This document shows positions 38,979-55,978 of a DNA stretch of 64,000 bases, piece by piece; position 1 is the first letter of the stretch; each line of letters starts with the position of its first letter. A program made the translations under genes and the position numbers. This stretch comes from Candidatus Zhuqueibacterota bacterium. Its GTDB lineage: Bacteria > Zhuqueibacterota > JdFR-76 > DREG01. Location: assembly GCA_022566355.1 (NCBI GenBank), contig JADFJB010000003.1:15377-79376 (forward strand), in the 5' to 3' direction. The notes below the pieces were generated by a model that was not told the origin of the DNA, did not search any database, and was given only the letters and a program-made list of their open reading frames with translations.

Positions 38979-39215
38979 ATGGCATATGTGGTGAGCAAAA
39001 AATTAGATTGTCGATGGTTATACGACCCACTTCCAATTATCCGCTTAAGTTGTGCTGTTCGACAATTAAATGCTGGAGAAATCATTGAAATGATATCAAA
39101 TGATCCTGCAGCTTTGTATGATATGAAAGCATGGAGTAAATTAACCGGCCATACCGTACTAGAAACAACAAATCGCCCAGACCATACTTGTTTTTTAATT
39201 CAAAAAAAGATATAG
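38979..39215 (+). CDS. TusA-like sulfur-carrier family protein, with Asp in place of the canonical CPxP cysteine
   Basis: LDCRWLYDPLPIIRL...EMISNDPAALYDMKAW matches the TusA fold pattern. The canonical Cys position reads D, and a Cys occurs 5 residues earlier. Confidence 0.65.
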   Translation: MAYVVSKKLDCRWLYDPLPIIRLSCAVRQLNAGEIIEMISNDPAALYDMKAWSKLTGHTVLETTNRPDHTCFLIQKKI

Positions 39216-39224
39216 GAGATTTTC

Positions 39225-39464
39225 ATGGCTGAATATGAAATCAAAGAAACCTTGGATTGTAGTGGATTACTATGTTCAGAGCCGGTTATAAAAACAAGCA
39301 AAAAAATTAAAGAGTTAGAAGTAGGTGATGTATTTGAAATGATTTCCACCGACCCGGGTGCAATGCCCGATATGCAAGCATGGGCAAACCAGACCAAACA
39401 TGAACTGCTGGAGTCTAGTGAGGATGGGTCGCTGTACCGTTTTGTAATCAAAAAAACTCATTGA
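39225..39464 (+). CDS. tusA: TusA-family sulfurtransferase/sulfur carrier
   Basis: LDCSGLLCSEPVIKT matches the TusA LDxxGLxCPxP signature with Cys conserved. ...EMISTDPGAMPDMQAW. Confidence 0.7.
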   Translation: MAEYEIKETLDCSGLLCSEPVIKTSKKIKELEVGDVFEMISTDPGAMPDMQAWANQTKHELLESSEDGSLYRFVIKKTH

Positions 39465-39485: not shown

Positions 39486-40007
39486 ATGTCAAAAGAAAAT
39501 GGCACTCGTCGCCTTGCTTTAATCTCTAGTAAAGGAACTTTAGATTGGGCGTACCCACCATTTATTATGGCGAGCGCTGCCGGAGCGATGGATTGGGAGG
39601 TGGCAATTTTTTATACTTTTTATGGTTTACCGCTTTTAAAGAAAAAATTGGATGCAACAGTTACCCCGATTGGTAATCCTGCCATGCCCATGAAAATGCC
39701 TTTTGGCCCGAAAGGTTTTCAAAACATTGATTGGAATATCCCAAATCTTTTGATGAGCAATATTCCCGGTTTCGACAATGTTGCTACAAGTTTAATGAAA
39801 CAGACCTTTAAGAAAAAAGGTGTTGCCACAATTGAAGAGCTGCGGGAAATGTGTATTGAGATGGACAACGTGCGCTTGATCGGTTGCCAGATGACGATGG
39901 ATGTTTTCGGTTTTAAACGAGAAGATTTTATAGATAAATGTGAAATTGGTGGTGCGGCGACTTTTTTGGAATACGCCGCAGATGCGGATGTAAATCTATT
40001 TATTTAG
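39486..40007 (+). CDS. DsrE/DsrF-like (DsrE2-type) sulfur-relay family protein
   Basis: 173 aa. DsrE-like Rossmann beta-alpha pattern (RLALISSKG...AAGAMDWEVAIFYTFYGL) with a conserved Cys (IGCQMTMD). Immediately downstream of two tusA-like genes, as in tusA-dsrE2 clusters. The family call is motif- and context-based. Confidence 0.5.
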   Translation: MSKENGTRRLALISSKGTLDWAYPPFIMASAAGAMDWEVAIFYTFYGLPLLKKKLDATVTPIGNPAMPMKMPFGPKGFQNIDWNIPNLLMSNIPGFDNVATSLMKQTFKKKGVATIEELREMCIEMDNVRLIGCQMTMDVFGFKREDFIDKCEIGGAATFLEYAADADVNLFI

Positions 40008-40071
40008 GTATCACACTTTCTTTGATTAGGATATGATACAAAATAGTAGGGTATACAGATTTTCTTGGAGA

Positions 40072-40170
40072 TGCTCACAGAAGGGTCGCTTTTTTCGCGA
40101 AGCTCAAGCAGCCGTATCTCTTAATCACGCTAACATTGCCGCGATTTATGAAGTTGATGAAAATCGATAA
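40072..40170 (+). pseudogene. relic of a Ser/Thr kinase gene (subdomain II-III fragment)
   Basis: Translates to ...RFFREAQAAVSLNHANIAAIYEVDENR*, the kinase consensus RFxREAxxxxxLxHPNIVxxYxVxE. It stands alone in intergenic DNA at the left edge of the GC-rich patch. Confidence 0.5.
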
Positions 40171-40279
40171 CCAGGCTTTTATCGCAAAGAAGGAGGCAAA
40201 GAAGATATTCTCGGAAGGTTGAGAAACGATTAAGCGTTACATGCGTGTTGTAGAGCAACCTGATTGAAAGACAGAGAAA

Positions 40280-41503
40280 ATGACCAAACAACAAGCACAA
40301 AAGACGGAGTGGACGGTCCGGGAACAGAAGGAACATCTGGATCGCCGTGCGAACTTCTTTATTCTTGATGTGCGCAACCGCGACGAGTTCTCCGTCTGGA
40401 AGATCGAGGGGTGGAAAACACCGCCCACATTGAACGTACCTTACTTCGAGATGTATGAGAAGGGCGGCAAGGACGACTTCATCGAGTCGATAATTGCCTA
40501 TATCGAGATCGAGTTGCTTGGACAGTTACCCAAGGACCGACCGATCTTGGCCGTTTGTTCCAAGGGCAACACCTCGGCATACGTGGCCGAAGGCCTATGT
40601 CAGCTCGGTTACGACGCATTCAACCTACAGGGTGGCATGCAGGCATGGGGCAACTTCTACGAGATCAACCCAGTCACCGAAAGCCGCGAGTTGAGCGTCT
40701 ACCAGATCAGCCGGCCAGCGCGTGGCTGCTTGAGTTACATCATCGTAAGCGATGGCCAAGCGGTGGTCATCGACCCGTTGCGCCATATCGAAACATACCT
40801 CGACATCGCGAGCGCGAAAGGATTCCAAATTGAACACATCATGGAGACCCACGGCCATGCCGATCATATTAGCGGTGGGTCAAAGCTGGCCAAACAGCTC
40901 AACCGACGGTACTACCTCCACCCTTACGACGGCATCCACCTCCTTGATATGCTACCAGCTCGCATTCCTTTCGAGTACCTGCGTGACGGTCAGGCGCTCT
41001 CGGTCGGCAAGGCGAAAATCCAAACCCTACATATCCCAGGTCACACACTTGGTAATGTGGCCTATCTTCTGAATGAAGCGTACTTGTTCACCGGTGACAG
41101 CATCTTTATCAACTCGATCGCCCGTCCGGATCTCGGTGGACGTGGGGAGACCTGGGCGGGGCTGCACTATCACTCCCTAAGAAGACTACTCGATTTTCCC
41201 GACACGACGTTTGTGCTACCGGGTCACTTCAGCACTCCACGCGAAGCCAACGTCGCCGGGCTTTTCATGGCTTCCTTGGGCGAGCTAAAGGAGAAGAACG
41301 AGGGCCTGCACATGGCCCAGAAGAGCGAAGATGCGTTTGTACAGTACATTTTGGGAAGCCTACCGGAGTTCCCGTCGCAGTACGTTGAGATCAAGCGGGT
41401 AAACGCGGGCCTGCTTCTCGTCGACGAAGTTAAGGCGAGTGAGCTTGAGCTAGGAAAAAACGTCTGCGCGTTGGCGCAAGCCTACGAAACAGAGTCGACT
41501 TGA
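40280..41503 (+). CDS. rhodanese domain - metallo-beta-lactamase fold fusion protein (persulfide dioxygenase-like); GC-rich, probably horizontally acquired
   Basis: N-terminal rhodanese with catalytic Cys loop (AVCSKGNTS). MBL motifs HIMETHGHADHISGG, HIPGHTLGN and GDSIF. The nucleotide composition is clearly GC-richer than the flanking DNA. The many long overlapping spurious ORFs in the track here are typical of GC-rich DNA. Confidence 0.8.
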   Translation: MTKQQAQKTEWTVREQKEHLDRRANFFILDVRNRDEFSVWKIEGWKTPPTLNVPYFEMYEKGGKDDFIESIIAYIEIELLGQLPKDRPILAVCSKGNTSAYVAEGLCQLGYDAFNLQGGMQAWGNFYEINPVTESRELSVYQISRPARGCLSYIIVSDGQAVVIDPLRHIETYLDIASAKGFQIEHIMETHGHADHISGGSKLAKQLNRRYYLHPYDGIHLLDMLPARIPFEYLRDGQALSVGKAKIQTLHIPGHTLGNVAYLLNEAYLFTGDSIFINSIARPDLGGRGETWAGLHYHSLRRLLDFPDTTFVLPGHFSTPREANVAGLFMASLGELKEKNEGLHMAQKSEDAFVQYILGSLPEFPSQYVEIKRVNAGLLLVDEVKASELELGKNVCALAQAYETEST

Positions 41504-41542
41504 GCACCGCATGAGTTGAGGAATCATAAGAAGGGATTAAGT

Positions 41543-41608
41543 ATGAGAATGACATTCGACAAGGTTCTGGATGCACGCGGGCTCGCCTGCCCCATGATCG
41601 GATATTAA
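41543..41608 (+). pseudogene. truncated tusA-like start (22 codons: MRMTFDKVLDARGLACPMIGY*)
   Basis: A canonical TusA N-terminal motif xLDxRGLxCP, cut short by a stop. Lies in the GC-rich patch directly after the rhodanese-MBL gene. Confidence 0.5.
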
Positions 41609-42170
41609 AACCAAGGCATATGCAACAATGGCCGAGGATTCTACTAAACTAATAGTATTTACATATAGTATTTACATAAAAAAATAGATGGTACCAGGCG
41701 TTGGGGGATAAATTCCATACAAGAGTTATTTTCGTGATACAAAGATTAAAAATCGATATTCTTTGATATTTGAGAGGATGCAAAGGCACAATTAGGAAAA
41801 TTACGGGGACAATTATTAAATGATCGGCAAACCATCCTCCACTACAAATTTCTCTCCAAACGCGACGACCACAATTGAAACAATTGGGTAGTTTCAAATG
41901 CGACAAAATTATCTATTTACACAAATATACAAACAAAGTCAAAAAATCATTGATTTTTAACTTATCAATTTGTAAAATTCAATATCGTAGAAACGGAAAT
42001 ATCTCCTGACTAAAATCAAAAACTATCTTGTAATAACCATATCATGATCGGCAAGACAATATTTCACTAAAAAAATTCAAATATCGCGTGCTGGCCAAGG
42101 TATTTCAGATATTTTCAAGATACTTAAGCAGAGCTTGGTCAAAACAATGAAAACTAACCTGGATCGTTAA

Positions 42171-43841
42171 ATGCAATTTGGATTCATTATCGACAACCGT
42201 AGATGTATTGGTTGCCACGCTTGTACTGTAGCATGTAAAGCAGAACATGATACTCCTCTGGGTGTCAATCGAACCTGGGTTAAATATATTGAGAAGGGTG
42301 AATTCCCAAACACACGCCGCTTGTTTTCGGTCATGCGCTGCAACCACTGTGCGGATGCGCCCTGTGTGGAAATTTGTCCTACCGGGTCCTTATTCACTCG
42401 TGAAGACGGCATCGTCGATTTTGATAAACGTCGCTGTATCGGCTGTAAAGCTTGCATGCAAGCCTGTCCCTACGACGCGCTTTACATCGACCCTGAAACG
42501 GATACAGCGGCAAAATGTAACTATTGCGCCCATCGAGTAGATATTGGTTTAGAGCCGGCTTGTGTAAATGTTTGTCCAACTCATGCGATCATTTCCGGTG
42601 ATATGGACGATCCGCAATCGGAAATATCTCAACTATTGGCTCACGAGAAAGTCACGGCAAGGAAAGTCGAAAAAGGAACTCAACCTAAATTGTTCTATAT
42701 CGATGGAGATGAGGCGTCTTTAAATCCAGCTGCAACAGATCAATCGAGTGATTATATGTGGAACTCACAAATCTCCGGAGTCGGCCATTTTGCCAGCTAT
42801 GCTGAAAATCGGATTGCAAGTTCTGATCCACAAGAATTGCTCAATCAATTAACCGGCAGTAACGGTGATGATAAACAATGGCTATCCAGTGAGAAAAACC
42901 CCAAAGAAAAAGTGCTAGTTCCTGAAAGCCAAGGTAGCGAAATTATCCAACAAAAAGCCAAAGATGTTGTCGAAGAAACAACCAAGCGAGTTTATGATAG
43001 TCCGGGTAAAGGAGTCTTGTGGGGTTGGGAAGTGCCGGCTTATATCTGGACCAAAGCGGTTTCAACGGGTGCATTCCTGGTTCCTTTCCTGGCATTCGTG
43101 GGTGGTTTTTCTTCGGTTAGCGACCCAGTTCAATGGCTTGGATTGAGCCTGGGATTGTTATTTCTTGTTTTAACCAATATTCTGCTAATTAAGGACTTGG
43201 ATCAGCCATTTAGATTTGCTTATGTTTTGCTAAGACCCCAGTGGCGATCCTGGCTGGTCCGTGGTGGCTATGCAATCACTTTTTATGGTGGATTGTTGAC
43301 CGCCGGGATTATTACAAAGTTAAGCGGATTAACCAATCTGGAAATTTTGGTAAAATGGCTTTGTGCAATCGTCGCAGTTATAACTTCTGTTTATACCGCA
43401 TTCTTACTTGCCCAGGCTAAAGGCCGCGATTTTTGGCAGAGTCCGATCTTACCGTTTCATATGATCGTTCACACAATGCTAGCTGGTGCTGCTATTTTTG
43501 CTTTTCTGTCACCCATAGCCGGATTTGATCAAAGTTGGCATACTTATTTGGATCATGTTTTTTACACGTTTATTATTCTAAACTTACTGATTATTAGTGT
43601 GGAGTTATTTACACCACACCCGACAGCAGATTCAAAGGTCGTTGTAGATATGATAATACGTGGACGGTTCAAGAGGCTATTCAAAGTGGGTGTTGTCATT
43701 ATGGGCAATATCGTTCCATTATTCTTTGTTTTGTTGGGCAGCCCGGAATTATTGCCGTTTGTGGGTTTGTTGATTTTGATGGGGATCTATTTCACAGAAC
43801 ATATCTGGGTGCTGGCGCCGCAACTGGTTCCATTAAGTTAG
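42171..43841 (+). CDS. fusion of 4Fe-4S ferredoxin-type electron-transfer subunit (PsrB/TtrB/DmsB-like) with NrfD/PsrC-like integral membrane quinone-interacting subunit
   Basis: N-terminal 4 Cys clusters (CIGCHACTVAC, CNHCADAPCVEICP, CIGCKACMQACP, CNYCAHRVDIGLEPACVNVCP) followed by about 300 aa with 8 or more hydrophobic helices. No signal or TAT peptide. Confidence 0.8.
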   Translation: MQFGFIIDNRRCIGCHACTVACKAEHDTPLGVNRTWVKYIEKGEFPNTRRLFSVMRCNHCADAPCVEICPTGSLFTREDGIVDFDKRRCIGCKACMQACPYDALYIDPETDTAAKCNYCAHRVDIGLEPACVNVCPTHAIISGDMDDPQSEISQLLAHEKVTARKVEKGTQPKLFYIDGDEASLNPAATDQSSDYMWNSQISGVGHFASYAENRIASSDPQELLNQLTGSNGDDKQWLSSEKNPKEKVLVPESQGSEIIQQKAKDVVEETTKRVYDSPGKGVLWGWEVPAYIWTKAVSTGAFLVPFLAFVGGFSSVSDPVQWLGLSLGLLFLVLTNILLIKDLDQPFRFAYVLLRPQWRSWLVRGGYAITFYGGLLTAGIITKLSGLTNLEILVKWLCAIVAVITSVYTAFLLAQAKGRDFWQSPILPFHMIVHTMLAGAAIFAFLSPIAGFDQSWHTYLDHVFYTFIILNLLIISVELFTPHPTADSKVVVDMIIRGRFKRLFKVGVVIMGNIVPLFFVLLGSPELLPFVGLLILMGIYFTEHIWVLAPQLVPLS

Positions 43842-43914
43842 GAAAGCGCCTAAAGCGCCAAAATTGCCAAATGCTTATTATCATATATTTTTTGGTTACC
43901 AATAGGAGAATTTA

Positions 43915-46776
43915 ATGTCCGACCGGAATTCGGGAAATCTAATTGAAAAAATAGCCGAGAAACTGCACCTCATTCCAAATCTACATACAGAAACTGGACC
44001 CGATCTTCAAAGTTTAACCGAAGCTGGCAAGCTAACGGATTTTCCTCCTATCGAAAAGTGGGACGATTGGGTTGAATATGAAGCGAAAAGCTGGCCGCGA
44101 CGCGACCCCAAGCATTATATGATCATACCAACGACATGCTTTAATTGTGAAGCCGGCTGTGGTTTACTAAGCTACGTCGACAAAGAGACTATGACTGTCC
44201 GAAAATTTGAGGGCAATCCTTATCATCCAGCCAGCCGAGGGCGGAATTGTGCTAAGGGGCCGGCAACGATCAATCAAATTAATGATGAGGACAGAATCCT
44301 TTATCCGATGAAACGAAAAGGCAAGCGCGGGGAAGGTGGCTGGGATCGCGTTTCGTGGGATGAAGTTTTGGATGATTTTTCGGGACGAATACGAAAAGCG
44401 CTTCAGGAGAAACGAAATAATGAAGTCGTTTATCACGTTGGTCGACCGGGTCATGAGGGTTATATGGATCGAATACTACAGTCCTGGGGTGTGGATGGCC
44501 ACAACAGCCACACCAATATTTGTTCTGCCGGTGCGCGATTTGGTTATGCGATTTGGCATGGTTTCGACCGGCCTTCTCCGGATCATGCCAATGCAAAATT
44601 AATATTGCTGATCTCTGCTCATCTTGAGTCCGGACATTATTTTAACCCTCATGCACAAAGAATAATAGAAGGATTAATGAACGGTTGCAAATTGGTGGTT
44701 ATGGATCCACGGCTCTCCAATACCGCCAGTATGGCTGATTATTGGCTGCCTACTTATCCAGGCAGTGAAGCGGCCGTGCTTTTGGCCATGGCAAAAGTGA
44801 TTCTCGATGAAAGCCTTTTCGATGAAAAATATTTACATGATTGGGTAAACTGGCAAGAGTTTCTGCAAAAAGAACATCCAACTGTAGAAGTAAACTTTGC
44901 TAATTTTATTCGATTGCTGAAAGAAACCTACCAGGAATACACACCGGAATTCGCCGCTAACGAAAGCGGAATTGATGCCGAGACCATTATTGAGGTCGCA
45001 CGCAAAATAGGTGAAGCCGGAAGTCGATTTTCATCCCATAATTGGCGCAGTGCGGGTAGCGGAAATTTAGGTGGCTGGGCTGTTTCGCGCTGTTTGCATT
45101 TTTTGAATGTGCTCACGGGTAGTGTCGGAACAGTGGGGGGGACGTCGCCAAGCGGTTGGAACAAATTTAAACCAACTGTCTTTGATAAGCCACCCGCACA
45201 AAAATTCTGGAATGAATTGCATTTTCCAAACGAATATCCGCTCGCACATTACGAAATGAGTTTTCTATTGCCGCATTTCTTGAAAGAGGGGAGAAGTAAA
45301 CTGGATGTGTATTTCACCCGGGTTTTTAATCCGGTATGGTCTTTTCCTGATGGTTTTACCTGGATTGAAGTATTACAGGATGAAAGCAAAATTGGCCTGC
45401 ACGCTGCCTTAACACCCACCTGGAATGAAACAGCGTTTTTTGCGGATTATGTTCTGCCGATGGGCCATGCAAGCGAGCGGCATGACTTGATCAGCTACGA
45501 GACCCATTCCGGCATGTGGATTGCTTTTCGTCAACCTGTTTTGCGTGAGGCTGCTCGAAAAATGGGTAATCCTGTCCAATTTACTTATGAGGCTAACCCT
45601 GGAGAAGTGTGGGAGGAGGACGAGTTTTGGGTCGAATTATCCTGGCGGATTGATCCGGATGGGAGCCTGGGGATTAAAAAACATTTTATGTCCCCTTATA
45701 GAAAGGGAGAAAAAATCACCATTGATGAATATTATCAATTCGTTTTTGATAATGTACCTGGGTTGCCGGAAAAAGCGGCTGAAAAAAAGTTGACTCCACT
45801 GGAATATATGCGAATTTACGGCGCTTTTGAGGTGGAGAAAACTTCATATCATAAGCATCTAAAACCGCTAACAAAAGAAGAATTAAAGAAAACTAAGGTG
45901 GATACAAAAACGGGAACGATTAAAACGAAAGAAAAAATTGTCGGTGTTTTTGCGGATGGAAAATCTTATGCCGGATTCCCGACGCCTTCTAAAAAGCAAG
46001 AGTTTTATTCCCAAACGATGGTCGATTGGAATTGGCCAGAATATAAAATTCCAATTTATATAAAAAGTCATGTTCATCCGGATCAAATGGATCGAAGCAA
46101 AGGAGAGTTCCCATTGGTGCCAACTTTTCGGTTACCGACCCTGATTCATTCCCGATCTGGTAATGCCAAATGGCTTATGGAAATTTCGAATCGCAATCCA
46201 ATTTGGATGCATACTTCAGATGGAAAAGACCTGGGAATAAAGACAGGGGATTTGCTGCGGGTAAATACAGACATCGGTTATTTTGTCGATCGGGTTTGGC
46301 TAACAGAAGGGATGAAACCGGGCATCGTGGCGTGTTCTCACCATCTCGGCAGGTGGCGGCGGCCACAAGATGCTAAGGGAAATCGATGGGCAACCAATTT
46401 GGTTTCCATCAAACAAATGAAAAATGGCAAATGGAAAATGAGGCAATTGGATGGCATCCGCCCCTATAAAAGCAACGATCCGGATTCGTCCCGTATCTTT
46501 TGGAGCGATGGCGGTGTACATCAAAATCTCACTTTCCCTGTTCATCCGGATCCAGTCAGCGGTATGCATTGCTGGCATCAAAAGGTGAGAATTGAGAAAG
46601 CGCATCCGGAAGATAAATATGGCGATGTGGTGGTCGATACCAATCGCTCCTTTGAAATTTATAAAGAATGGTTGAAAAAAACTCGTCCGGCGCCAGGTCC
46701 AGGAGGATTGAGAAGGCCGCTTTGGCTGAATAGACCGCTCCGTCCATCGGAAGAGATGTTTTACATCGATTTATAA
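43915..46776 (+). CDS. molybdopterin (bis-MGD) oxidoreductase catalytic subunit, Psr/Phs/Ttr/Soe-like, without twin-arginine signal
   Basis: 953 aa. N-terminal FeS motif CFNCEAGCG...C. Molybdopterin and C-terminal molybdop-binding domain (GIVACSHHLGRW). No RRxFLK motif in the first 70 residues. Confidence 0.9.
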   Translation: MSDRNSGNLIEKIAEKLHLIPNLHTETGPDLQSLTEAGKLTDFPPIEKWDDWVEYEAKSWPRRDPKHYMIIPTTCFNCEAGCGLLSYVDKETMTVRKFEGNPYHPASRGRNCAKGPATINQINDEDRILYPMKRKGKRGEGGWDRVSWDEVLDDFSGRIRKALQEKRNNEVVYHVGRPGHEGYMDRILQSWGVDGHNSHTNICSAGARFGYAIWHGFDRPSPDHANAKLILLISAHLESGHYFNPHAQRIIEGLMNGCKLVVMDPRLSNTASMADYWLPTYPGSEAAVLLAMAKVILDESLFDEKYLHDWVNWQEFLQKEHPTVEVNFANFIRLLKETYQEYTPEFAANESGIDAETIIEVARKIGEAGSRFSSHNWRSAGSGNLGGWAVSRCLHFLNVLTGSVGTVGGTSPSGWNKFKPTVFDKPPAQKFWNELHFPNEYPLAHYEMSFLLPHFLKEGRSKLDVYFTRVFNPVWSFPDGFTWIEVLQDESKIGLHAALTPTWNETAFFADYVLPMGHASERHDLISYETHSGMWIAFRQPVLREAARKMGNPVQFTYEANPGEVWEEDEFWVELSWRIDPDGSLGIKKHFMSPYRKGEKITIDEYYQFVFDNVPGLPEKAAEKKLTPLEYMRIYGAFEVEKTSYHKHLKPLTKEELKKTKVDTKTGTIKTKEKIVGVFADGKSYAGFPTPSKKQEFYSQTMVDWNWPEYKIPIYIKSHVHPDQMDRSKGEFPLVPTFRLPTLIHSRSGNAKWLMEISNRNPIWMHTSDGKDLGIKTGDLLRVNTDIGYFVDRVWLTEGMKPGIVACSHHLGRWRRPQDAKGNRWATNLVSIKQMKNGKWKMRQLDGIRPYKSNDPDSSRIFWSDGGVHQNLTFPVHPDPVSGMHCWHQKVRIEKAHPEDKYGDVVVDTNRSFEIYKEWLKKTRPAPGPGGLRRPLWLNRPLRPSEEMFYIDL

Positions 46777-47246: not shown

Positions 47247-48974
47247 ATGGAAATCTCCAAAATAACCGATCATATTCGAACTTATAACAAAACACTATTT
47301 CGCCGTGATATTATCGCTGGGCTCACCGTCACCTTTGTGGCAATCCCGCAATCGATGGTCTATGCACTTATTGCTGGTGTTGAACCGCAATATGGTTTGT
47401 ACGCTTTTATGGTGGGTTCAATTGTCGGATCGATTTTTGGTTCATCACGTCATCTGAACACTGGGCCAACGAATGCCACATCAATAGTTATTGCCAGCAC
47501 CCTGGCTTTATATTCTGTTGATGACCAATTTTTGAAGATGGTTTTTCTATTGGGATTCCTTTCTGGATGTTTGCAACTAGGTGCCGGACTTTTAAAGTTG
47601 AGCAACTTAACTCATTTTCTTTCTCGCTCAGTATTAGCTGGTTTTATCGGCGGGGCGGGCCTTTTTATCATTGTCAACCAGATGCCCAATTTAATGGGAT
47701 TTTCAAAAAATACTAATTCCTCTGTATTTGAGGGAGTAAAACACATATTTAACAGTTTGGATCAAATTCAACCAACTGTTTTATTGGTGGGAATTGGATC
47801 TATTTTATTAACACTCCTTATTAATAGGCTAAGCCCAAAAACAACTTCAGGAATTCCCATTTTACCGTCGTACCTGATTTCTATTTTATTGTCAGCGGCA
47901 ATTGTTGTGATATTTGATCTTGGAGATACAGTCAAAGTGGTGGGAGATATCCCCAGGTCTCTGCCACCTTTAAGCATGCCACTATTTGAGTTGGAATCTA
48001 TTCAAACTCTGATGCAAGGCGCAATAGCGATAGCATTTATAGGATTAGCAGAAGCTACGTCTGCAGCCAAAATAGTAGCAGACTTTGCTGGTGATAAGCT
48101 GCAAGTTGACAAAGAATTTAGAGGCCAGGGACTTGCAAAAATTGCAACATCCTTTTTTAGCGGAATACCTGTTTCGGGCTCATTTACCAGGAGTTTACTT
48201 TGCTACAGAGCAGGTGCAGAGACAAAAATGGCGAATATTATGGCCGGTATTTTTGTTGCAATTGCCGTGTTATTTTTTGGTCCGGTTATTAAACACATCC
48301 CATTAGCGGCTTTGGCTGGTATTGTTATGTTGATTGCAAGCAATATGGTTGATTGGAAATACGTTAAAATGGCTCTTCGCTCATCGAATGTGGATTCATT
48401 AGCTATTCTTGCAACTTTTTTTGCTGCCCTGTTTTTTTCATTGGTCACTGCAATTTATATTGGTGTGGGGTTTTCCCTGGTCCTGTTCCTTCGCAGGGTA
48501 AAGAAGCCTAACCTTGTTGAGTTGATATACGATGATAAGTTCGGGTTCAAAGAAAAAACTGAATCTAATCAAAGTTCCATTCCTGAGCTTACCATTATCC
48601 ATGTTGAAGGAGATGTTTTTTTTGCCAGCGTAGATTCTGTGGATGATGATATTCAAAAGATTGCTCAACGAAATGCGGTAAAAGTGATTATACTTAGATT
48701 GAAAAGAGCCTTTAGCCTGGATGCAACTTCTATGATGGTATTTATGAAAATCTATAAGGATTTAGAAAAACAAGGCAAATTGTTGCTCATCTCAGGAGCT
48801 GGCGGGCAAGTTAAAAAGATTATTCACGAATCAGGTTTGGATAAAGTAATTGGCGAAGACCACATTTTTTATTCAGATGAGAACTTATTTAAATCCACAC
48901 GCGCTGCGATTAGTTATGCGCTTCAATTCATCAATGCGAATTATGGTACAAATTATACGATGTCTAATTTGTAA
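47247..48974 (+). CDS. SulP-family (SLC26) anion/sulfate permease with C-terminal STAS domain
   Basis: 575 aa. The N-terminal SulP signature region (TVTFVAIPQSMVYALIAGVEPQYGLY), multiple TM segments and a STAS-like C-terminus. Confidence 0.9.
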   Translation: MEISKITDHIRTYNKTLFRRDIIAGLTVTFVAIPQSMVYALIAGVEPQYGLYAFMVGSIVGSIFGSSRHLNTGPTNATSIVIASTLALYSVDDQFLKMVFLLGFLSGCLQLGAGLLKLSNLTHFLSRSVLAGFIGGAGLFIIVNQMPNLMGFSKNTNSSVFEGVKHIFNSLDQIQPTVLLVGIGSILLTLLINRLSPKTTSGIPILPSYLISILLSAAIVVIFDLGDTVKVVGDIPRSLPPLSMPLFELESIQTLMQGAIAIAFIGLAEATSAAKIVADFAGDKLQVDKEFRGQGLAKIATSFFSGIPVSGSFTRSLLCYRAGAETKMANIMAGIFVAIAVLFFGPVIKHIPLAALAGIVMLIASNMVDWKYVKMALRSSNVDSLAILATFFAALFFSLVTAIYIGVGFSLVLFLRRVKKPNLVELIYDDKFGFKEKTESNQSSIPELTIIHVEGDVFFASVDSVDDDIQKIAQRNAVKVIILRLKRAFSLDATSMMVFMKIYKDLEKQGKLLLISGAGGQVKKIIHESGLDKVIGEDHIFYSDENLFKSTRAAISYALQFINANYGTNYTMSNL

Positions 48975-49386: not shown

Positions 49387-49983
49387 ATGTTTGAAAACTT
49401 ATCTGCCGCCATCATCGCAGGGGGAAAAAGTGCCAGGTTTGGAGAGCATAAAGGGTTGGCTGTTCTAAATTCTCGACAAATGATTGACTATTCGATTGTC
49501 CTTGCAAAAGAGATCGGGTTTTCTCAATTCCTGGTATATGGCAAGGAAAATTACTTTGACCAAATTGACATACCTTGTTATTCCGATATCATCCCACATT
49601 GTGGACCAATGGGTGGGATTTATACAGCTTTGGTGAAAGCACAAACAAATTTAGTCGCAACCATTCCTTGTGATATGCCTTTTCTAACGGCAGAAGTGTA
49701 TAGATTGCTTTATGATAATTATGGGGAAAACAAGCCTGTTATTGCAGTTTCAGAAAACGGCGTAGAATCCCTGGTAGCAATATGGCCAAAAACATATGAA
49801 AGTAAATTAAGGGATGCAATTCACAAGAAAGTTTTTACAATTCATGCATTCATTCAAAATAATGATATCCCTAAAATATCCATTCCTGAATTAATGCCGG
49901 ATTATGAGGAGAAAATTTTTCTTAATATTAACACGAAAGAAGATTTAGCAGCTATCCAAAAAAATTCTTATTGGAGTAAATAA
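49387..49983 (+). CDS. mobA: molybdenum cofactor guanylyltransferase MobA
   Basis: AAIIAGGKSARFG..K... and IPCDMPFL motifs of the MobA-like NTP transferase family. Confidence 0.8.
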   Translation: MFENLSAAIIAGGKSARFGEHKGLAVLNSRQMIDYSIVLAKEIGFSQFLVYGKENYFDQIDIPCYSDIIPHCGPMGGIYTALVKAQTNLVATIPCDMPFLTAEVYRLLYDNYGENKPVIAVSENGVESLVAIWPKTYESKLRDAIHKKVFTIHAFIQNNDIPKISIPELMPDYEEKIFLNINTKEDLAAIQKNSYWSK

Positions 49984-50976: not shown

Positions 50977-52197
50977 TTACTTTGTTACCACCCAGGGAAA
51001 TAAAAAAGCGTCGATAAGTTCGCCCTCGTACAAAGATACACCAGCATCAATGAGTATAAACCCATTCGCATTGACAATGGTCGAAATCATGTGCGAACCT
51101 TGTTTCTCCAAAGGATAAGCTATTGGTTTTCCTTGTGAATTTGTTGTGATTTGAACACGCATAAGATGAGCTCTGTTTAATTTGTTTTGAATAGGCTCTT
51201 GTAATTCCGCTTGCAAGGGGAAAGCGGTCTTAACTTTTCCACATAGCTGATGAATCATTGGATGGATAAAATAGGAATAACACATAAATGCTGAAACGGG
51301 ATTTCCGGGTAATCCAAACAAAAGAGTATTCTCTTTTTTAGCGAACAGAAGCGGTTTGCCTGGTTTTATCCGAACTCGCCAAAATAAAGTTTCGAATCCC
51401 ACTTTCTGTACCGCTTCTTTAATATGGTCGTGAGGTCCCACTGAAACACCGCCAGATAAAATGATGAGGTTGCAATTTTCCATAATCCGCTCAAGTAATT
51501 CGACTGTTTGATCCAGGCTATCAGGAACTTTTTCCACGGCTTTCACTAAACCGCCGGATTGTTGCAGTGCTGTGGACAGCATGATTCCATTTGAATCGCG
51601 AATTTGCCAAGGTTGTACAGGCTGATCAAATGGGACAAGTTCAGTTCCGGTAACAATTATGGCTGCTTGTGGTCTCGCATAGACGGATAATTGAGATAAG
51701 CCTACTGAAGCCAATAAAGCAATCTGGGGGGGATGGATTTCCATACCCTTGGGGATTAGAAGATCGCCTGCTTTAAATTCCTCACCTTCATAGCGAATAT
51801 TTTGTCCCTTCTTTTTAACCTGCAAAATCTTAACCATTGAGCCGGTTACTTCTACTTCTTCAATTGGGACAACCGTATCAGCACCTTCAGCCACCATGGC
51901 GCCTGTACTGATTCTAACAGCTTTACCCGATATTAATTTTTCCTGAAATGGTATTCCCGCCTGGCTTTCTCCAACGATTTTGAGAGACACCGGGTTTGCA
52001 GATGAAGTGGATCGGATATCATCCCATCGCAATGCAAAGCCATCCATGGCGCTGTTGGTATAACGGGGTGAAGGCTCCGGTGCAAGAATATCTTCTGCAG
52101 ATATTAACCCTAACGCATCTTGCAATTTTGCCGAAGTTATTTCTTTTTCCGGTAAATGATCTTGAATGATTTTAGATGCTTCTTGTATTGAAATCAT
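50977..52197 (-). CDS. moeA: molybdopterin molybdotransferase MoeA
   Basis: MoeA N-terminal and central domains plus the MoCF-binding domain with LILSGGVSVG. Confidence 0.9.
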   Translation of the reverse strand: MISIQEASKIIQDHLPEKEITSAKLQDALGLISAEDILAPEPSPRYTNSAMDGFALRWDDIRSTSSANPVSLKIVGESQAGIPFQEKLISGKAVRISTGAMVAEGADTVVPIEEVEVTGSMVKILQVKKKGQNIRYEGEEFKAGDLLIPKGMEIHPPQIALLASVGLSQLSVYARPQAAIIVTGTELVPFDQPVQPWQIRDSNGIMLSTALQQSGGLVKAVEKVPDSLDQTVELLERIMENCNLIILSGGVSVGPHDHIKEAVQKVGFETLFWRVRIKPGKPLLFAKKENTLLFGLPGNPVSAFMCYSYFIHPMIHQLCGKVKTAFPLQAELQEPIQNKLNRAHLMRVQITTNSQGKPIAYPLEKQGSHMISTIVNANGFILIDAGVSLYEGELIDAFLFPWVVTK

Positions 52198-53026: not shown

Positions 53027-53788
53027 ATGAAGTCTATCACAAAAATAATAATACTTTTTAATTTCTTCCTGAGTTTAGCAATCCAGGTCTATGCACAAGA
53101 ACTAACTATTGCGGTTGCCGCAAATGTTCAGTTTACCATGGAAGAAATTCAAAAAGAATTTACCAAAAAAACAGGCATTCCACTAAACACAGTGATCGGT
53201 TCATCCGGAAAGTTAACGGCTCAAATTAATAATGGCGCTCCCTTTGATGTATTTTTGTCTGCAGACATGAAATATCCTGAATTCTTATTTGCAAATAAAA
53301 AAGCTGTTACAGAACCTGAAATTTATGCACATGGCAGTTTGGTATTGTGGACACGAAAAGATCTGGAATTGATGGATCTGGTCTCGGTTTTAAAAGATGA
53401 AAGAGTACAGAAAATTGCTATAGCCAAACCTAAAACCGCTCCCTATGGCCGGGAATCTTTGAGAGTTTTACATCTCCACAAAATTTTTGATGCAATCGAA
53501 GACAAGCTGGTATATGCCGGAAGTATTGCACAAGTTAATCAGTACGTGGATTCCAAAGTGGTGGATATCGGCTTCACGGCAAAATCTGCGGTGTTGTCCG
53601 AGAAATTGCTTGGGAAAGGCGCATGGCTGGAAATTGATCCAGCCGATTATATGCCAATCGATCAGGGTGTGGTTATTTTGAAGCATGGACTACAAAAATA
53701 TCCTGAAGAGAGCAGGTTATTTTATGATTTCCTTTTCTCAGATAGGGCCAAAGATATTTTCAAAAAGAACGGTTACCGATTGCCATGA
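53027..53788 (+). CDS. modA: molybdate ABC transporter substrate-binding protein ModA
   Basis: Signal peptide. ModA family pattern (LTIAVAANVQFTMEEI...GSSGKLTAQI..GAPFDVFLSAD). Confidence 0.9.
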   Translation: MKSITKIIILFNFFLSLAIQVYAQELTIAVAANVQFTMEEIQKEFTKKTGIPLNTVIGSSGKLTAQINNGAPFDVFLSADMKYPEFLFANKKAVTEPEIYAHGSLVLWTRKDLELMDLVSVLKDERVQKIAIAKPKTAPYGRESLRVLHLHKIFDAIEDKLVYAGSIAQVNQYVDSKVVDIGFTAKSAVLSEKLLGKGAWLEIDPADYMPIDQGVVILKHGLQKYPEESRLFYDFLFSDRAKDIFKKNGYRLP

Positions 53789-54189
53789 ATAAACTCAAGG
53801 CTGAAATTGTTCGGATCGATTCTTCAAAAGATATCTCATTGGTTGATTTAAAAGTCAAAAACGATATTTTTTCGTGTGTGGTTATTGAGACTCCCGAGAC
53901 AGCTGATTATCTAAAAATTGGAAATCAAGTGACCATTTTATTCAAGGAAACTGAGGTTGCTATCGGTAAGAATCTTTCCGGTGAAATAAGTTTACGGAAC
54001 CGGGTTCAGTCAATTATTAAACATATTGAAAAGGGTGAAGTCTTAACCAGGTTAGTCTTAGATTATGAAGGAGTCGATATTGGATCCATCATCACAACTC
54101 GTTCGGCAAATCGTTTGAAGTTGGAGAAAGGGGATGAAGTCGTTGGATTAATCAAAGCGAATGAAGTTTCAATTTTAGAGGGAGATTGA
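53785..54189 (+). CDS. tandem TOBE (Mop-like) molybdate-binding protein
   Basis: Two TOBE repeats (SxxNxLxG pattern: SCVVIETPETADYLKIGNQVTILFKETEV; LTRLVLDYEGVDIGSIITTRSANRLKLEKGDEVVGLIKANEV). No DNA-binding domain. Confidence 0.8.
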   Translation: MNKLKAEIVRIDSSKDISLVDLKVKNDIFSCVVIETPETADYLKIGNQVTILFKETEVAIGKNLSGEISLRNRVQSIIKHIEKGEVLTRLVLDYEGVDIGSIITTRSANRLKLEKGDEVVGLIKANEVSILEGD

Positions 54190-54190
54190 A

Positions 54191-54862
54191 TTGGAATTCA
54201 ACCTGTCGCCACTAATTCTGACATTCAAACTCGCTATCATTACAACTTTTTTCCTTTTGTTAATCGGATTGCCCCTGGCGTATTGGTTAACGTATTGGAA
54301 GAATAAAAGTAAATATTTGCTGCAAACTTTAGTGAGTATGCCACTCGTTCTGCCTCCAACCGTAATCGGATTCTATTTGCTCATTGCCTTTAATCCGGAA
54401 AATTTCTTTGGCAGATTTTTGCTATCGGTTTTTGATATTCAATTGGTGTTTTCATTCGAAGGACTTGTGGTCGCTTCCATGATTTATAGTTTACCATTTA
54501 TGGTTAATCCCATTCAAGCAGGATTGCAGAGTTTACCGGCTTCTATTATGGAGGCATCTTACACACTGGGAAAATCTAAACTGAAAACGTTTACGCATGT
54601 GCTGATCCCTAATATTAAGCCATCCTTAATAACCGGCATCATCATTAGTTTTGCACATACTGTTGGTGAATTTGGCGTGATCTTGATGATTGGTGGGAGT
54701 ATCCCCGGTAAAACCAGGGTTGCCTCAATAGCTATTTACGACGAGGTGGAAGCCCTCAATTATGACAATGCACATTATTATTCATTGATTTTATTTGCGA
54801 TCACGTTTGTCATTTTACTTGCAGTTTATATTTTTAATCGCAGGTATTTGAAGGCATTTTAG
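54191..54862 (+). CDS. modB: molybdate ABC transporter permease ModB
   Basis: 6 TM segments. EAA-type loop (EASYTLGKSKLKTFTHVLIPNIKPSLITG). Confidence 0.9.
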   Translation: MEFNLSPLILTFKLAIITTFFLLLIGLPLAYWLTYWKNKSKYLLQTLVSMPLVLPPTVIGFYLLIAFNPENFFGRFLLSVFDIQLVFSFEGLVVASMIYSLPFMVNPIQAGLQSLPASIMEASYTLGKSKLKTFTHVLIPNIKPSLITGIIISFAHTVGEFGVILMIGGSIPGKTRVASIAIYDEVEALNYDNAHYYSLILFAITFVILLAVYIFNRRYLKAF

Positions 54863-55099
54863 GATTGAAATATTTTCAAAGAGACATGAAGGACACGGAG
54901 GAAGAAGAATGAAGAAAGAAAAAAGATAAAAGAAAAAACCAAAAAAAAGGAAAAGACGATTATTTTTGGTGAATTTGTATCCACAATTACCGCGGTAGGG
55001 TAAATATTTGTAACACTATTCGCCAATAAAAATTGAAGAACCCCGGAAGGGTTCCATATAAACAAACTTACCCAAAAGATAAATATCTTTCATAATTTA

Positions 55100-55978
55100 A
55101 TGATAAAAATTAAAGTTACAAAAACCCTACAAGATCCAGAAGGTGAATTTCAACTGAACCTGGATGTGGAGATTAATGATAATGAATTCATTACCTTGTA
55201 TGGTAAATCCGGTGCGGGCAAAACCACGACACTACGGATTTTAGCGGGATTGTTGAATCCCGATTTTGGCACGGTCCATGTCGATGATGAAGTCTGGTAT
55301 GACAGTAAACATGGCGTGAATTTAACTCCCCAACAAAGAGGGATCGGTCTGGTTTTCCAGGACTATGCTTTATTTCCCAACATGACCGTGCGGAAAAATC
55401 TCGAATATTCGTTAGATTCAAAAAAGGATTTCCAAATCATCGATACTTTGTTAGAATTAATGGGCCTGGAAAACCTGGCAAGCCGTAAGCCCAATTCGCT
55501 TTCAGGAGGACAACAACAACGGGTTGCTTTGGCTCGTGCTTTGGTACGCAAACCAAAACTTCTCCTTCTCGATGAACCTTTATCAGCTTTGGATATGGAA
55601 ATGAGATCCAAGCTGCAAGATGAAATTTTAAAGATCCATCACGAATTTGCCATCACGACGATCCTGGTTAGCCACAGTTTCGCGGAAATATTTAAACTAT
55701 CGAACCGAGTGTTTGTGATTGATAAAGGAAAAATCACCAAGACCGGAAATCCTGCTGATATTTTCATAGACAGGAAATTAAGCGGTAAATTTAAGTTTGA
55801 AGGCAAAATCCTGGCGTTGCAAAAAAGTGATGTCGTTTATATCGCAACAATTTCTATTGGAAATAACATTGTAAAAGTAATTGCTTCAGATGAAGAAGCG
55901 CGGCAATTCAATATTGGTGATCGAGTGGTGGTTTCCTCGAAGGCGTTTAATCCGATTTTGATGAAAATTGATCCTTAA
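55100..55978 (+). CDS. modC: molybdate ABC transporter ATP-binding protein ModC with C-terminal TOBE domain
   Basis: Walker A GKSGAGKTT, signature LSGGQQQRVALARAL, Walker B LLLLDEPLSALD. A C-terminal TOBE-like tail. Confidence 0.9.
   Translation: MIKIKVTKTLQDPEGEFQLNLDVEINDNEFITLYGKSGAGKTTTLRILAGLLNPDFGTVHVDDEVWYDSKHGVNLTPQQRGIGLVFQDYALFPNMTVRKNLEYSLDSKKDFQIIDTLLELMGLENLASRKPNSLSGGQQQRVALARALVRKPKLLLLDEPLSALDMEMRSKLQDEILKIHHEFAITTILVSHSFAEIFKLSNRVFVIDKGKITKTGNPADIFIDRKLSGKFKFEGKILALQKSDVVYIATISIGNNIVKVIASDEEARQFNIGDRVVVSSKAFNPILMKIDP

Follow-up and report, generated by a model that had tools for sequence, protein, structure and literature searches.

The closest described counterparts of the enzyme treated here are the sulfite oxidoreductase SoeABC and the polysulfide-reductase-like complex 3 (PSRLC3) of green sulfur bacteria. 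SoeABC is known from Allochromatium vinosum (Dahl et al. 2013) and Aquifex aeolicus (Boughanemi et al. 2020; both as cited in PMC8076601), and according to a review restating Dahl et al. 2013, all purple and green sulfur bacteria possess genes of the SoeABC type (PMC8232776). In a survey of the NrfD family of membrane anchors, SoeC is recorded for Proteobacteria, Clostridia and Aquificae alone, and it is the one NrfD-type subunit for which an inverted position in the membrane is predicted (PMC8076601). PSRLC3 is attributed to Frigaard & Bryant 2008 and Gregersen et al. 2011 (as cited in PMC9324843 and PMC6338057). It is encoded by two genes ('2 genes encoding PSRLC3'; PMC5473276), has been called an alternative sulfite-oxidising system (PMC6338057) and is 'inferred to be sulfite oxidase', the catalytic-subunit tree holding both PSRLC3 and characterised SoeA (PMC9324843). 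The subject of the present analysis is a two-gene locus, BC-A, on a 64,000-nucleotide stretch of contig JADFJB010000003.1 (hereafter the window) from a Candidatus Zhuqueibacterota bacterium, referred to here as KSB1. In this locus, BC denotes a protein in which an iron-sulfur (FeS) subunit B and a membrane anchor C are fused, and A denotes the catalytic subunit. Frigaard and Bryant (2008) and Gregersen et al. (2011) are said to have described PSRLC3 with a fused PsrB/PsrC and no signal sequence; an explicit mention of the B-C fusion was not found in the literature searched, which left out these primary PSRLC3 papers.

Comparison with these systems identifies the window enzyme as a KSB1 member of a known family and not as a new architecture. 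In Chlorobium loci L040, L042, L050 and L055, the gene for a fused FeS/anchor protein likewise lies directly upstream of that for the catalytic subunit. Over the full length, identity to the window proteins is 68-70% for A and 46-51% for BC, and a 69%-identical DsrE2 is encoded nearby. To judge from this sequence comparison, the window enzyme and the two-gene enzyme of Chlorobium are orthologues, the Chlorobium loci being equated with PSRLC3 by architecture and not by locus tag. Unlike the green sulfur bacteria, the KSB1 host is no phototroph, and the sulfite source in the window is likely a rhodanese-persulfide dioxygenase together with TusA/DsrE2 instead of reverse Dsr. In common with SoeABC, the locus appears to encode an NrfD-anchored enzyme of the molybdenum-bis(pyranopterin guanine dinucleotide) (Mo-bisPGD) type without export signals, whose hydrophilic modules are predicted to be cytoplasmic, whose anchor would be inverted with respect to PsrC and which is tied to systems that generate sulfite in the cytoplasm (PMC8076601). 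On the other hand, SoeABC comprises three polypeptides in the order A-B-C, whereas the window locus consists of two genes in the order BC-A, with B and C in one polypeptide. SoeB and SoeC, of about 27 and 36 kDa, together have roughly the size of the 556-aa fusion. We therefore (and with fair, though far from complete, confidence) predict that BC-A is a cytoplasm-facing, quinone-coupled molybdoenzyme, namely a sulfite:quinone oxidoreductase of the SoeABC type that is made of two polypeptides.

An earlier sequence-only reading of this DNA had noted the fusion of the FeS subunit and the NrfD-like anchor in one 556-aa protein, the order B-C then A and the absence of export signals on both proteins, and had placed the hydrophilic domains on the cytoplasmic face, barring another export route. 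The observations are borne out below and the cytoplasmic placement is supported; the checks that it had proposed, i.e. a domain search, a topology prediction, an inspection of the assembly between B and C and a survey of homologous fusions, speak for the fusion and for this orientation. Its remark that B and C are normally separate holds for the characterised enzymes but not beyond them, the fused form itself being very common. The implied unusualness of the arrangement has to be given up, since it belongs to a known and very widespread family (PSRLC3/Soe-like).

Table 1. Features of the BC-A locus and its surroundings, in positions of the window.
Feature	Position	Strand	Basis
TusA-family protein, 78 aa, active-site Cys replaced (YDPLP instead of CPxP)	38979..39215	+	Pfam TusA, E 6.7e-15
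TusA sulfur carrier, 79 aa, Cys kept (LCSEP)	39225..39464	+	Pfam TusA, E 9.7e-23
DsrE2-type sulfur carrier	39486..40007	+	Pfam DrsE_2, E 7e-48
Rhodanese/metallo-beta-lactamase fusion (putative rhodanese-persulfide dioxygenase)	40280..41503	+	Rhodanese and Lactamase_B domains
BC, fused FeS subunit/NrfD-type membrane anchor	42171..43841	+	556-aa open reading frame; Fer4_11 and NrfD; full-length fused homologues
B domain (aa 1-180), four-cluster [4Fe-4S] ferredoxin, no signal peptide	42171..42710	+	PsrB match; 16 invariant Cys
B-C linker (aa 181-285)	42711..43025	+	Lengths and invariant columns in alignment; low model confidence (pLDDT)
C domain (aa 286-556), NrfD/PsrC-type anchor, predicted 8 transmembrane helices, both termini cytoplasmic	43026..43841	+	AlphaFold2, Foldseek, K+R bias
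A, predicted catalytic Mo-bisPGD subunit, no Tat signal	43915..46776	+	953-aa open reading frame; domains; homologues 65-83% identical across phyla
N-terminal extension of A, 70 aa, conserved	43915..44124	+	Invariant columns; sits in place of a Tat signal
FS0 [4Fe-4S] motif of A, C75-x2-C78-x3-C82 ... C112	44137..44250	+	Molybdop_Fe4S4; four Cys invariant
Cys203 codon, predicted Mo ligand (motif HNSHTNICSAGARFG)	44521..44523	+	Alignment to ArrA/PsrA Cys; invariant
SulP-family anion permease with STAS (candidate sulfate exporter)	47247..48974	+	Sulfate_transp and STAS domains
MobA-like guanylyltransferase (makes the bis-PGD cofactor form)	49387..49983	+	Pfam NTP_transf_3
MoeA molybdenum insertase	50977..52197	-	Pfam MoeA_N, MoCF_biosynth, MoeA_C
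Probable molybdate ABC transporter, ModA-/ModB-/ModC-like	53027..55978	+	SBP_bac_11, BPD_transp_1, ABC_tran

The open reading frames of BC and A are free of internal stops and separated by a gap of 73 bp. Within BC, Pfam recognises Fer4_11 at aa 52-144 (E 1.8e-24) and NrfD at aa 281-525 (E 3.6e-14). The B domain aligns end to end with PsrB of Thermus (2vpw_B; E 1.8e-51 across aa 3-179), and its four cluster motifs comprise 16 Cys residues (C12/15/18/22, C57/60/65/69, C89/92/95/99 and C116/119/131/135), all of which are invariant in 43 homologues. The first of these motifs stands directly at the N-terminus of BC. Moreover, the alignments of BC to the NCBIfam profiles TtrB, NrfC and DsrO start only at profile positions 38-44, and hence the signal-peptide part of these families is missing from BC. 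The linker that joins the two domains varies from 59 to 124 aa among homologues, and despite this variation it keeps the motifs Y195, W197, Q200 and G203-V-G-H206 as well as Y275-D276, P278, K280-G281, W284 and W286. Because these residues are invariant over such a range of lengths, the linker belongs to the selected protein and is not the product of read-through.

For the membrane domain, AlphaFold2 yields eight confident transmembrane (TM) helices with a predicted local distance difference test (pLDDT) score >90 between aa 287 and 551 (287-311, 318-343, 361-385, 388-417, 427-450, 454-480, 501-522 and 525-551). The model was used for this domain only, neither for inter-domain geometry nor for the structure of the linker. 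Foldseek relates the C domain to PsrC (2vpw_C, TMt 0.71), so that a PsrC-type anchor fold is shared with PsrABC, and in addition to ActC subunits of alternative complex III. The fold is indicated by AlphaFold2 together with Foldseek. In sequence searches of the PDB, the single sequence of the C domain had no match at E<=10, and PsrC was absent among the 60 matches listed for a profile search. In sequence and model, BC combines a four-cluster ferredoxin module with a cofactor-less, eight-helix NrfD/PsrC anchor, both of which are features of the NrfD-anchored complex iron-sulfur molybdoenzymes (Mo/W-bisPGD, DMSO-reductase superfamily).

The fusion of B and C is not an assembly error. Four contigs, which come from NCBI, Logan and ENA assemblies, carry the exact 556-aa sequence, with no hidden stop or start between the two parts, and the 90% cluster of BC includes further 556-aa members from JGI (the named member being MCH8124584.1 of candidate division KSB1) as well as a handful of truncated members on short contigs. 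Fer4_11 and NrfD occur together in each of the 120 best homologue clusters listed, whose lengths range from 503 to 580 aa and of which 118 span 100% of the query. In a species scan with one genome per GTDB species, at least 591 species possessed a homologue of A. Among the best 80 of these (the 80 loci referred to throughout), a BC homologue is present in 72 and full-length in about 67, a full-length BC lying upstream of A, and the loci without a full-length BC are mostly contig ends. An artefact, in the form of a missed stop or a frameshift between B and C, would have only the truncated members on short contigs to call upon, and nothing in its favour turned up otherwise; it is opposed by the identical protein in independent assemblies, by full-length fusions across many phyla (over 100 clusters, and the majority of the 80 species-level loci), and by the invariant residues inside the linker. 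Its probability is negligible, and it is regarded as excluded.

Subunit A contains the Pfam domains Molybdop_Fe4S4 (E 3.9e-11), Molybdopterin (E 1.5e-16) and Molydop_binding (E 9.2e-12), all above their gathering scores. Cys203 of A aligns with the Cys in the motifs 'SSVCAE' of ArrA and 'SLCTAP' of PsrA, which we take to be the molybdenum ligand in these enzymes. By sequence, A therefore presents itself with the three domains, the FS0 motif and a predicted protein ligand of molybdenum that characterise a Mo-bisPGD catalytic subunit. The Cys ligand (predicted here) and the FS0 cluster are shared with PsrABC of Thermus thermophilus (2VPW-2VPZ) and ArrAB of Shewanella (6CZ7). PsrABC and ArrAB are periplasmic reductases that are exported by the twin-arginine translocation (Tat) system and consist of separate subunits. 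The window enzyme differs from both in that it has no signal, is predicted to be cytoplasmic, carries B fused to C and possesses a 70-aa N-terminal extension on A. This extension is hydrophilic, and its conserved residues include LIEKIAEKL... and W49-D-D-W52-x-E54-x-E56-A57; docking to BC or the binding of a chaperone might be its role. The region of about 70 aa that precedes the FeS motif contains, in the window A as in 120 homologues, no twin-arginine motif with a hydrophobic stretch behind it. The string 'RRYMI' at position 66 in 3 of these 120 homologues stands directly before the cluster motif and is not a signal. The locus stays far below the NCBIfam equivalog cut-offs for the described reductases (PhsA, TtrA/B, ArrA/B and DmsA), for instance with PhsA at 167 vs 694 bits, TtrB at 192 vs 416 and ArrA at 122 vs 1600.

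The orientation of the anchor was assessed by counting Lys and Arg residues (K+R) in the loops, for which the eight-helix register backed by AlphaFold2 was applied to the alignment of the 110 fused BC homologues. The loops on the ferredoxin side (2-3, 4-5 and 6-7) contain on average 9.3 K+R versus 0.8 in the opposite loops, and the excess on the ferredoxin side is found in 110/110 proteins. As controls served the NrfD subunits of Azoarcus sp. KH32C and Sulfurovum mangrovi, which are encoded separately from B and in which the bias runs the other way (3 vs 10 and 5 vs 15). The A protein of Azoarcus bears a classical Tat signal (ITRRTFLKASAG...) and is the one control with a confirmed signal, the N-terminus of the Sulfurovum A not having been read. 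An automatic hydropathy-based assignment of the helices in the window BC was dropped, as it missed the weakly hydrophobic TM3, which renders the resulting parity (9 vs 8) meaningless. The ferredoxin cannot cross the membrane because it lies N-terminal to TM1 and is devoid of a signal peptide. The K+R bias, the reversed controls and the lack of Tat or other signals thus support a cytoplasmic location of the FeS domain and of A and an anchor inverted relative to PsrC, as far as sequence and model can tell.

Most NrfD-anchored molybdoenzymes are periplasmic (PMC8076601), which raises the question of whether the window enzyme is periplasmic as well, with a cryptic signal, hitch-hiking or some other unrecognised route serving for its export. 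This is hardly credible: the charge bias is strong, is seen without exception and runs counter to that of the two controls; neither protein has a signal across the approximately 230 homologues inspected; and the FeS domain is covalently attached N-terminal to TM1, the K+R distribution putting the N-terminus inside. A Tat signal on A and a periplasmic orientation, as in the enzymes of the Psr/Phs/Ttr/Arr type, were found for neither the window enzyme nor its homologues, and BC has no signal either.

The gene clusters that supplied the controls, on plasmid pAZKH of Azoarcus sp. KH32C (L081, 60-68 kb) and on a plasmid of Sulfurovum mangrovi (L082), are the nearest relatives found with separate B and C and are taken to encode periplasmic enzymes. 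They resemble the window locus in the order B, C, A, in an A protein that is 31-38% identical over about 90% of its length and in a conserved DLxQPxRF loop motif after TM2, and differ from it in the separate B and C genes, in a TorD chaperone gene that follows and in an anchor with the opposite charge bias. Downstream of these B-C-A-TorD clusters, there are more FeS genes as well as hypothetical ones.

The fused BC is the rule in its family, which is large and highly conserved, A being 65-83% identical over more than 10 phyla. Identities of A amount to 73-83% among the clusters listed (KSB1, Calditrichota, SAR324, Acidobacteriota and Bacteroidota) and to 65-82% in the 80 genome loci, which in addition represent Planctomycetota, Spirochaetia, Chloroflexota and Chlorobium. 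Values of 56-62% are found on megaplasmids of Thermomicrobium roseum, Rhodococcus jostii RHA1 and haloarchaea, and Actinomycetota and Myxococcota are further carriers. Cultured organisms with the enzyme include Rhodococcus jostii RHA1 (pRHL3, RHA1_RS43840/RS43835), Thermomicrobium roseum (TRD_RS12035/RS12030), Flavilitoribacter nigricans DSM 23189, Lutibacter aestuarii and Chlorobium sp. N1. In a Myxococcota branch (candidate P0262) A is 40% identical over its full length and BC is still fused; this candidate had been considered as a three-gene SoeABC and was rejected when it proved to be a fused-type member. The tblastn search of plasmids retrieved fused-type homologues (Thermomicrobium, Rhodococcus and haloarchaea) along with the B-C-A-TorD clusters of Azoarcus and Sulfurovum, and matches on Caballeronia and Agrobacterium plasmids were discarded as unrelated 700-aa oxidoreductases, not SoeA. 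Since the fused clade occurs in more than 10 phyla other than those given for SoeC, it was evidently not counted in the NrfD-family survey (PMC8076601).

In the window, the genes follow each other in the order TusA-like, TusA, DsrE2, rhodanese-persulfide dioxygenase, BC, A, SulP and MobA, with MoeA and the ModABC-like transporter just beyond. The DsrE2-type gene scores 205.8 bits against the NCBIfam DsrE2 profile, slightly below the cut-off of 210 bits. The rhodanese-persulfide dioxygenase is, from its domains, the likely cytoplasmic source of sulfite; its rhodanese/metallo-beta-lactamase (MBL) architecture has been discussed for cable bacteria (PMC13047784). Directly downstream of the enzyme, the genes between 49387 and 55978 form a molybdenum 'island', and the presumed molybdate specificity of the ModABC-like transporter is deduced from family and context.

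Among the 80 loci, the sulfur-related neighbours are SulP (34 loci), MBL plus rhodanese as a putative persulfide dioxygenase (29), rhodanese (27), YeeE/Sulf_transp halves (13), a flavoprotein resembling sulfide:quinone oxidoreductase (SQR; 11), DsrE2 (5), TauE (4) and TusA (4), and those for molybdenum cofactor synthesis are MoaE (11), MobA (8), MoeB (7) and MoaC (5). When only the 51 full-size loci, i.e. those of the 80 with full flanks, are considered, 35 contain at least one sulfur gene (SulP, MBL-rhodanese, rhodanese, YeeE, SQR-like, TauE, DsrE2 or TusA), and molybdenum-cofactor genes adjoin the enzyme in 10. In the Myxococcota, BC and A are preceded by MBL-rhodanese and then the YeeE halves. 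Plasmid pRHL3 of Rhodococcus jostii RHA1 harbours DsrE-TusA-BC-A-Mrp flanked by MBL hydrolases and ArsR regulators, and in Thermomicrobium a gene annotated as 'metal-sensitive transcriptional regulator' lies directly upstream. By gene content, the family thus seems to resemble SoeABC also in lying close to genes for the relay of sulfur and the generation of sulfite in the cytoplasm.

The assignment as a sulfite:quinone oxidoreductase builds on the domains, the fusion, the missing signals, the eight-helix topology with the N-terminus inside, the conservation and the synteny. In the proposed process, sulfite would be supplied by the neighbouring TusA/DsrE2/rhodanese-persulfide dioxygenase relay (by Dsr in Chlorobium) and oxidised to sulfate in the cytoplasm by A, with Mo-bisPGD, liganded by Cys203, and one [4Fe-4S] cluster as its cofactors. 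Electrons would then flow towards the quinone, whose site may be expected near the cytoplasmic face because the anchor is inverted relative to PsrC, and sulfate would leave the cell through the adjacent SulP. As a consequence of the fusion, the FeS module would be attached to the membrane automatically and Tat export would no longer be needed.

Several points weigh against this assignment. Sulfite as the substrate is suggested by gene context and published phylogeny, and we know of no biochemically characterised member of the fused clade. The labels persulfide dioxygenase, SQR, molybdate specificity and sulfate export derive from general Pfam domains, and in 16 of the 51 full-size loci no sulfur gene can be recognised near the enzyme. 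Among solved structures, A comes closest to ArrA (6CZ7, E 1.8e-39) and PsrA (E 1.9e-34), with matches over the N-terminal 40% or so of the protein. Furthermore, the AlphaFold2 model has pLDDT values below 50 for the FeS domain and the linker and gives no inter-domain geometry, and in four loci (L009, L026, L036 and L052) no BC is present in the available flank of up to 8 kb.

The main competing explanation is a cytoplasm-facing, quinol-oxidising reductase of polysulfide, thiosulfate or tetrathionate similar to Psr, Phs or Ttr. The nearest NCBIfam and PDB matches (TtrB, PhsA, ArrA and PsrA) are indeed reductases, the predicted Cys ligand of molybdenum corresponds to that of the Psr/Arr group, and the neighbouring TusA, DsrE2 and rhodanese handle sulfane sulfur. 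Those matches, however, remain far below the family cut-offs, as exemplified by PhsA above, and the links to MBL-rhodanese, SQR-like, SulP and TauE genes fit an oxidative route via sulfite. Besides, the carriers include Rhodococcus jostii, Thermomicrobium roseum, Flavobacteriaceae and haloarchaea, which we presume to be aerobic heterotrophs. Green sulfur bacteria, for their part, oxidise sulfur, and the literature assigns PSRLC3 to sulfite oxidation (PMC6338057; PMC9324843). Taken together, a reductase appears rather unlikely.

Another explanation would be a cytoplasm-facing, quinone-linked molybdoenzyme for a non-sulfur substrate, such as a compound of arsenic, selenium or nitrogen or an organic one, with the sulfur neighbours being coincidental. 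It could invoke ArrA as the best solved relative of A, the loci devoid of sulfur genes and the ArsR-family regulators that flank some loci. Since the ArsR/SmtB family also includes persulfide sensors, such regulators are no argument against sulfur. In addition, genes for arsenic, selenium or nitrogen metabolism are not recurrent among the 22 largest neighbour clusters, whereas synteny with sulfur genes recurs over unrelated phyla. We consider a non-sulfur substrate improbable, somewhat more so than a reductase, and retain sulfite oxidation as the preferred function.

If the assignment as a sulfite oxidase is true, inventories that rely on the three-gene soeABC underestimate the capacity for sulfite oxidation. 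The family is by no means confined to green sulfur bacteria but extends widely into heterotrophs and archaea, and it is linked repeatedly to MBL-rhodanese, SQR-like, SulP, YeeE and TauE genes. It is conceivable, though we would rate it somewhat below an even chance, that outside the Proteobacteria the fused BC-A is the principal sulfite:quinone oxidoreductase of the cytoplasm and has gone uncounted to date. In heterotrophs, it would act together with persulfide dioxygenase and SQR to dispose of sulfide and persulfide, and surveys that define soeABC by three genes would overlook it; these heterotrophs may comprise Bacteroidota, KSB1, Calditrichota, Acidobacteriota, Actinomycetota and haloarchaea. 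As a bolder variant, the fused clade may have a substrate or a mode of energy coupling unlike that of SoeABC. The covalent link between B and C also offers a natural, unambiguously inverted NrfD module for studying the coupling of anchor and quinone. What remains of interest is the breadth of the family, the link between persulfide and sulfite in heterotrophs, the conserved extension of A and the conserved linker motif.

Some related loci deviate in detail. In two Bacteroidota/Saprospiraceae (L038, 6130-7978, and L044, 6152-7990), two genes are inserted between BC and A, encoding an SQR-like flavoprotein of 396 aa and a product of about 210 aa that was read as a methyltransferase from sequence alone. 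In L052, the product of one of the upstream open reading frames ends in a duplicate of the N-terminus of A (MKHKPTLIERVAEKLG), which suggests a rearrangement. Directly after A, an actinobacterial locus (L088, 8940-9830) encodes a chaperone of the NarJ/TorD family (Pfam Nitrate_red_del), and pRHL3 of Rhodococcus jostii (L083, 8802-9971) an Mrp/NBP35 ATPase.

In the whole window, tblastn detected no TorD/NarJ-like or Mrp-like genes, and no dsr genes were seen in its annotated part (about 33-56 kb). Across the 64 kb, neither tRNA genes nor Rfam families at gathering threshold were found, and scans for promoters and terminators stayed at background level. Right after the rhodanese-persulfide dioxygenase gene, a 20-codon open reading frame (MRMTFDKVLDARGLACPMIGY*, 41543-41605) resembles the N-terminus of TusA (LDxxGLxCP) before it runs into a stop, pointing to the remnant of a gene. 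Between it and the start codon of BC lies an AT-rich spacer of about 565 bp (41606-42170). The 2-kb bin 40001-42000, in which the rhodanese-persulfide dioxygenase gene is located, has a GC content of 0.477 as compared with 0.374 in the preceding and 0.424 in the following bin, and a recent acquisition of this gene is possible.

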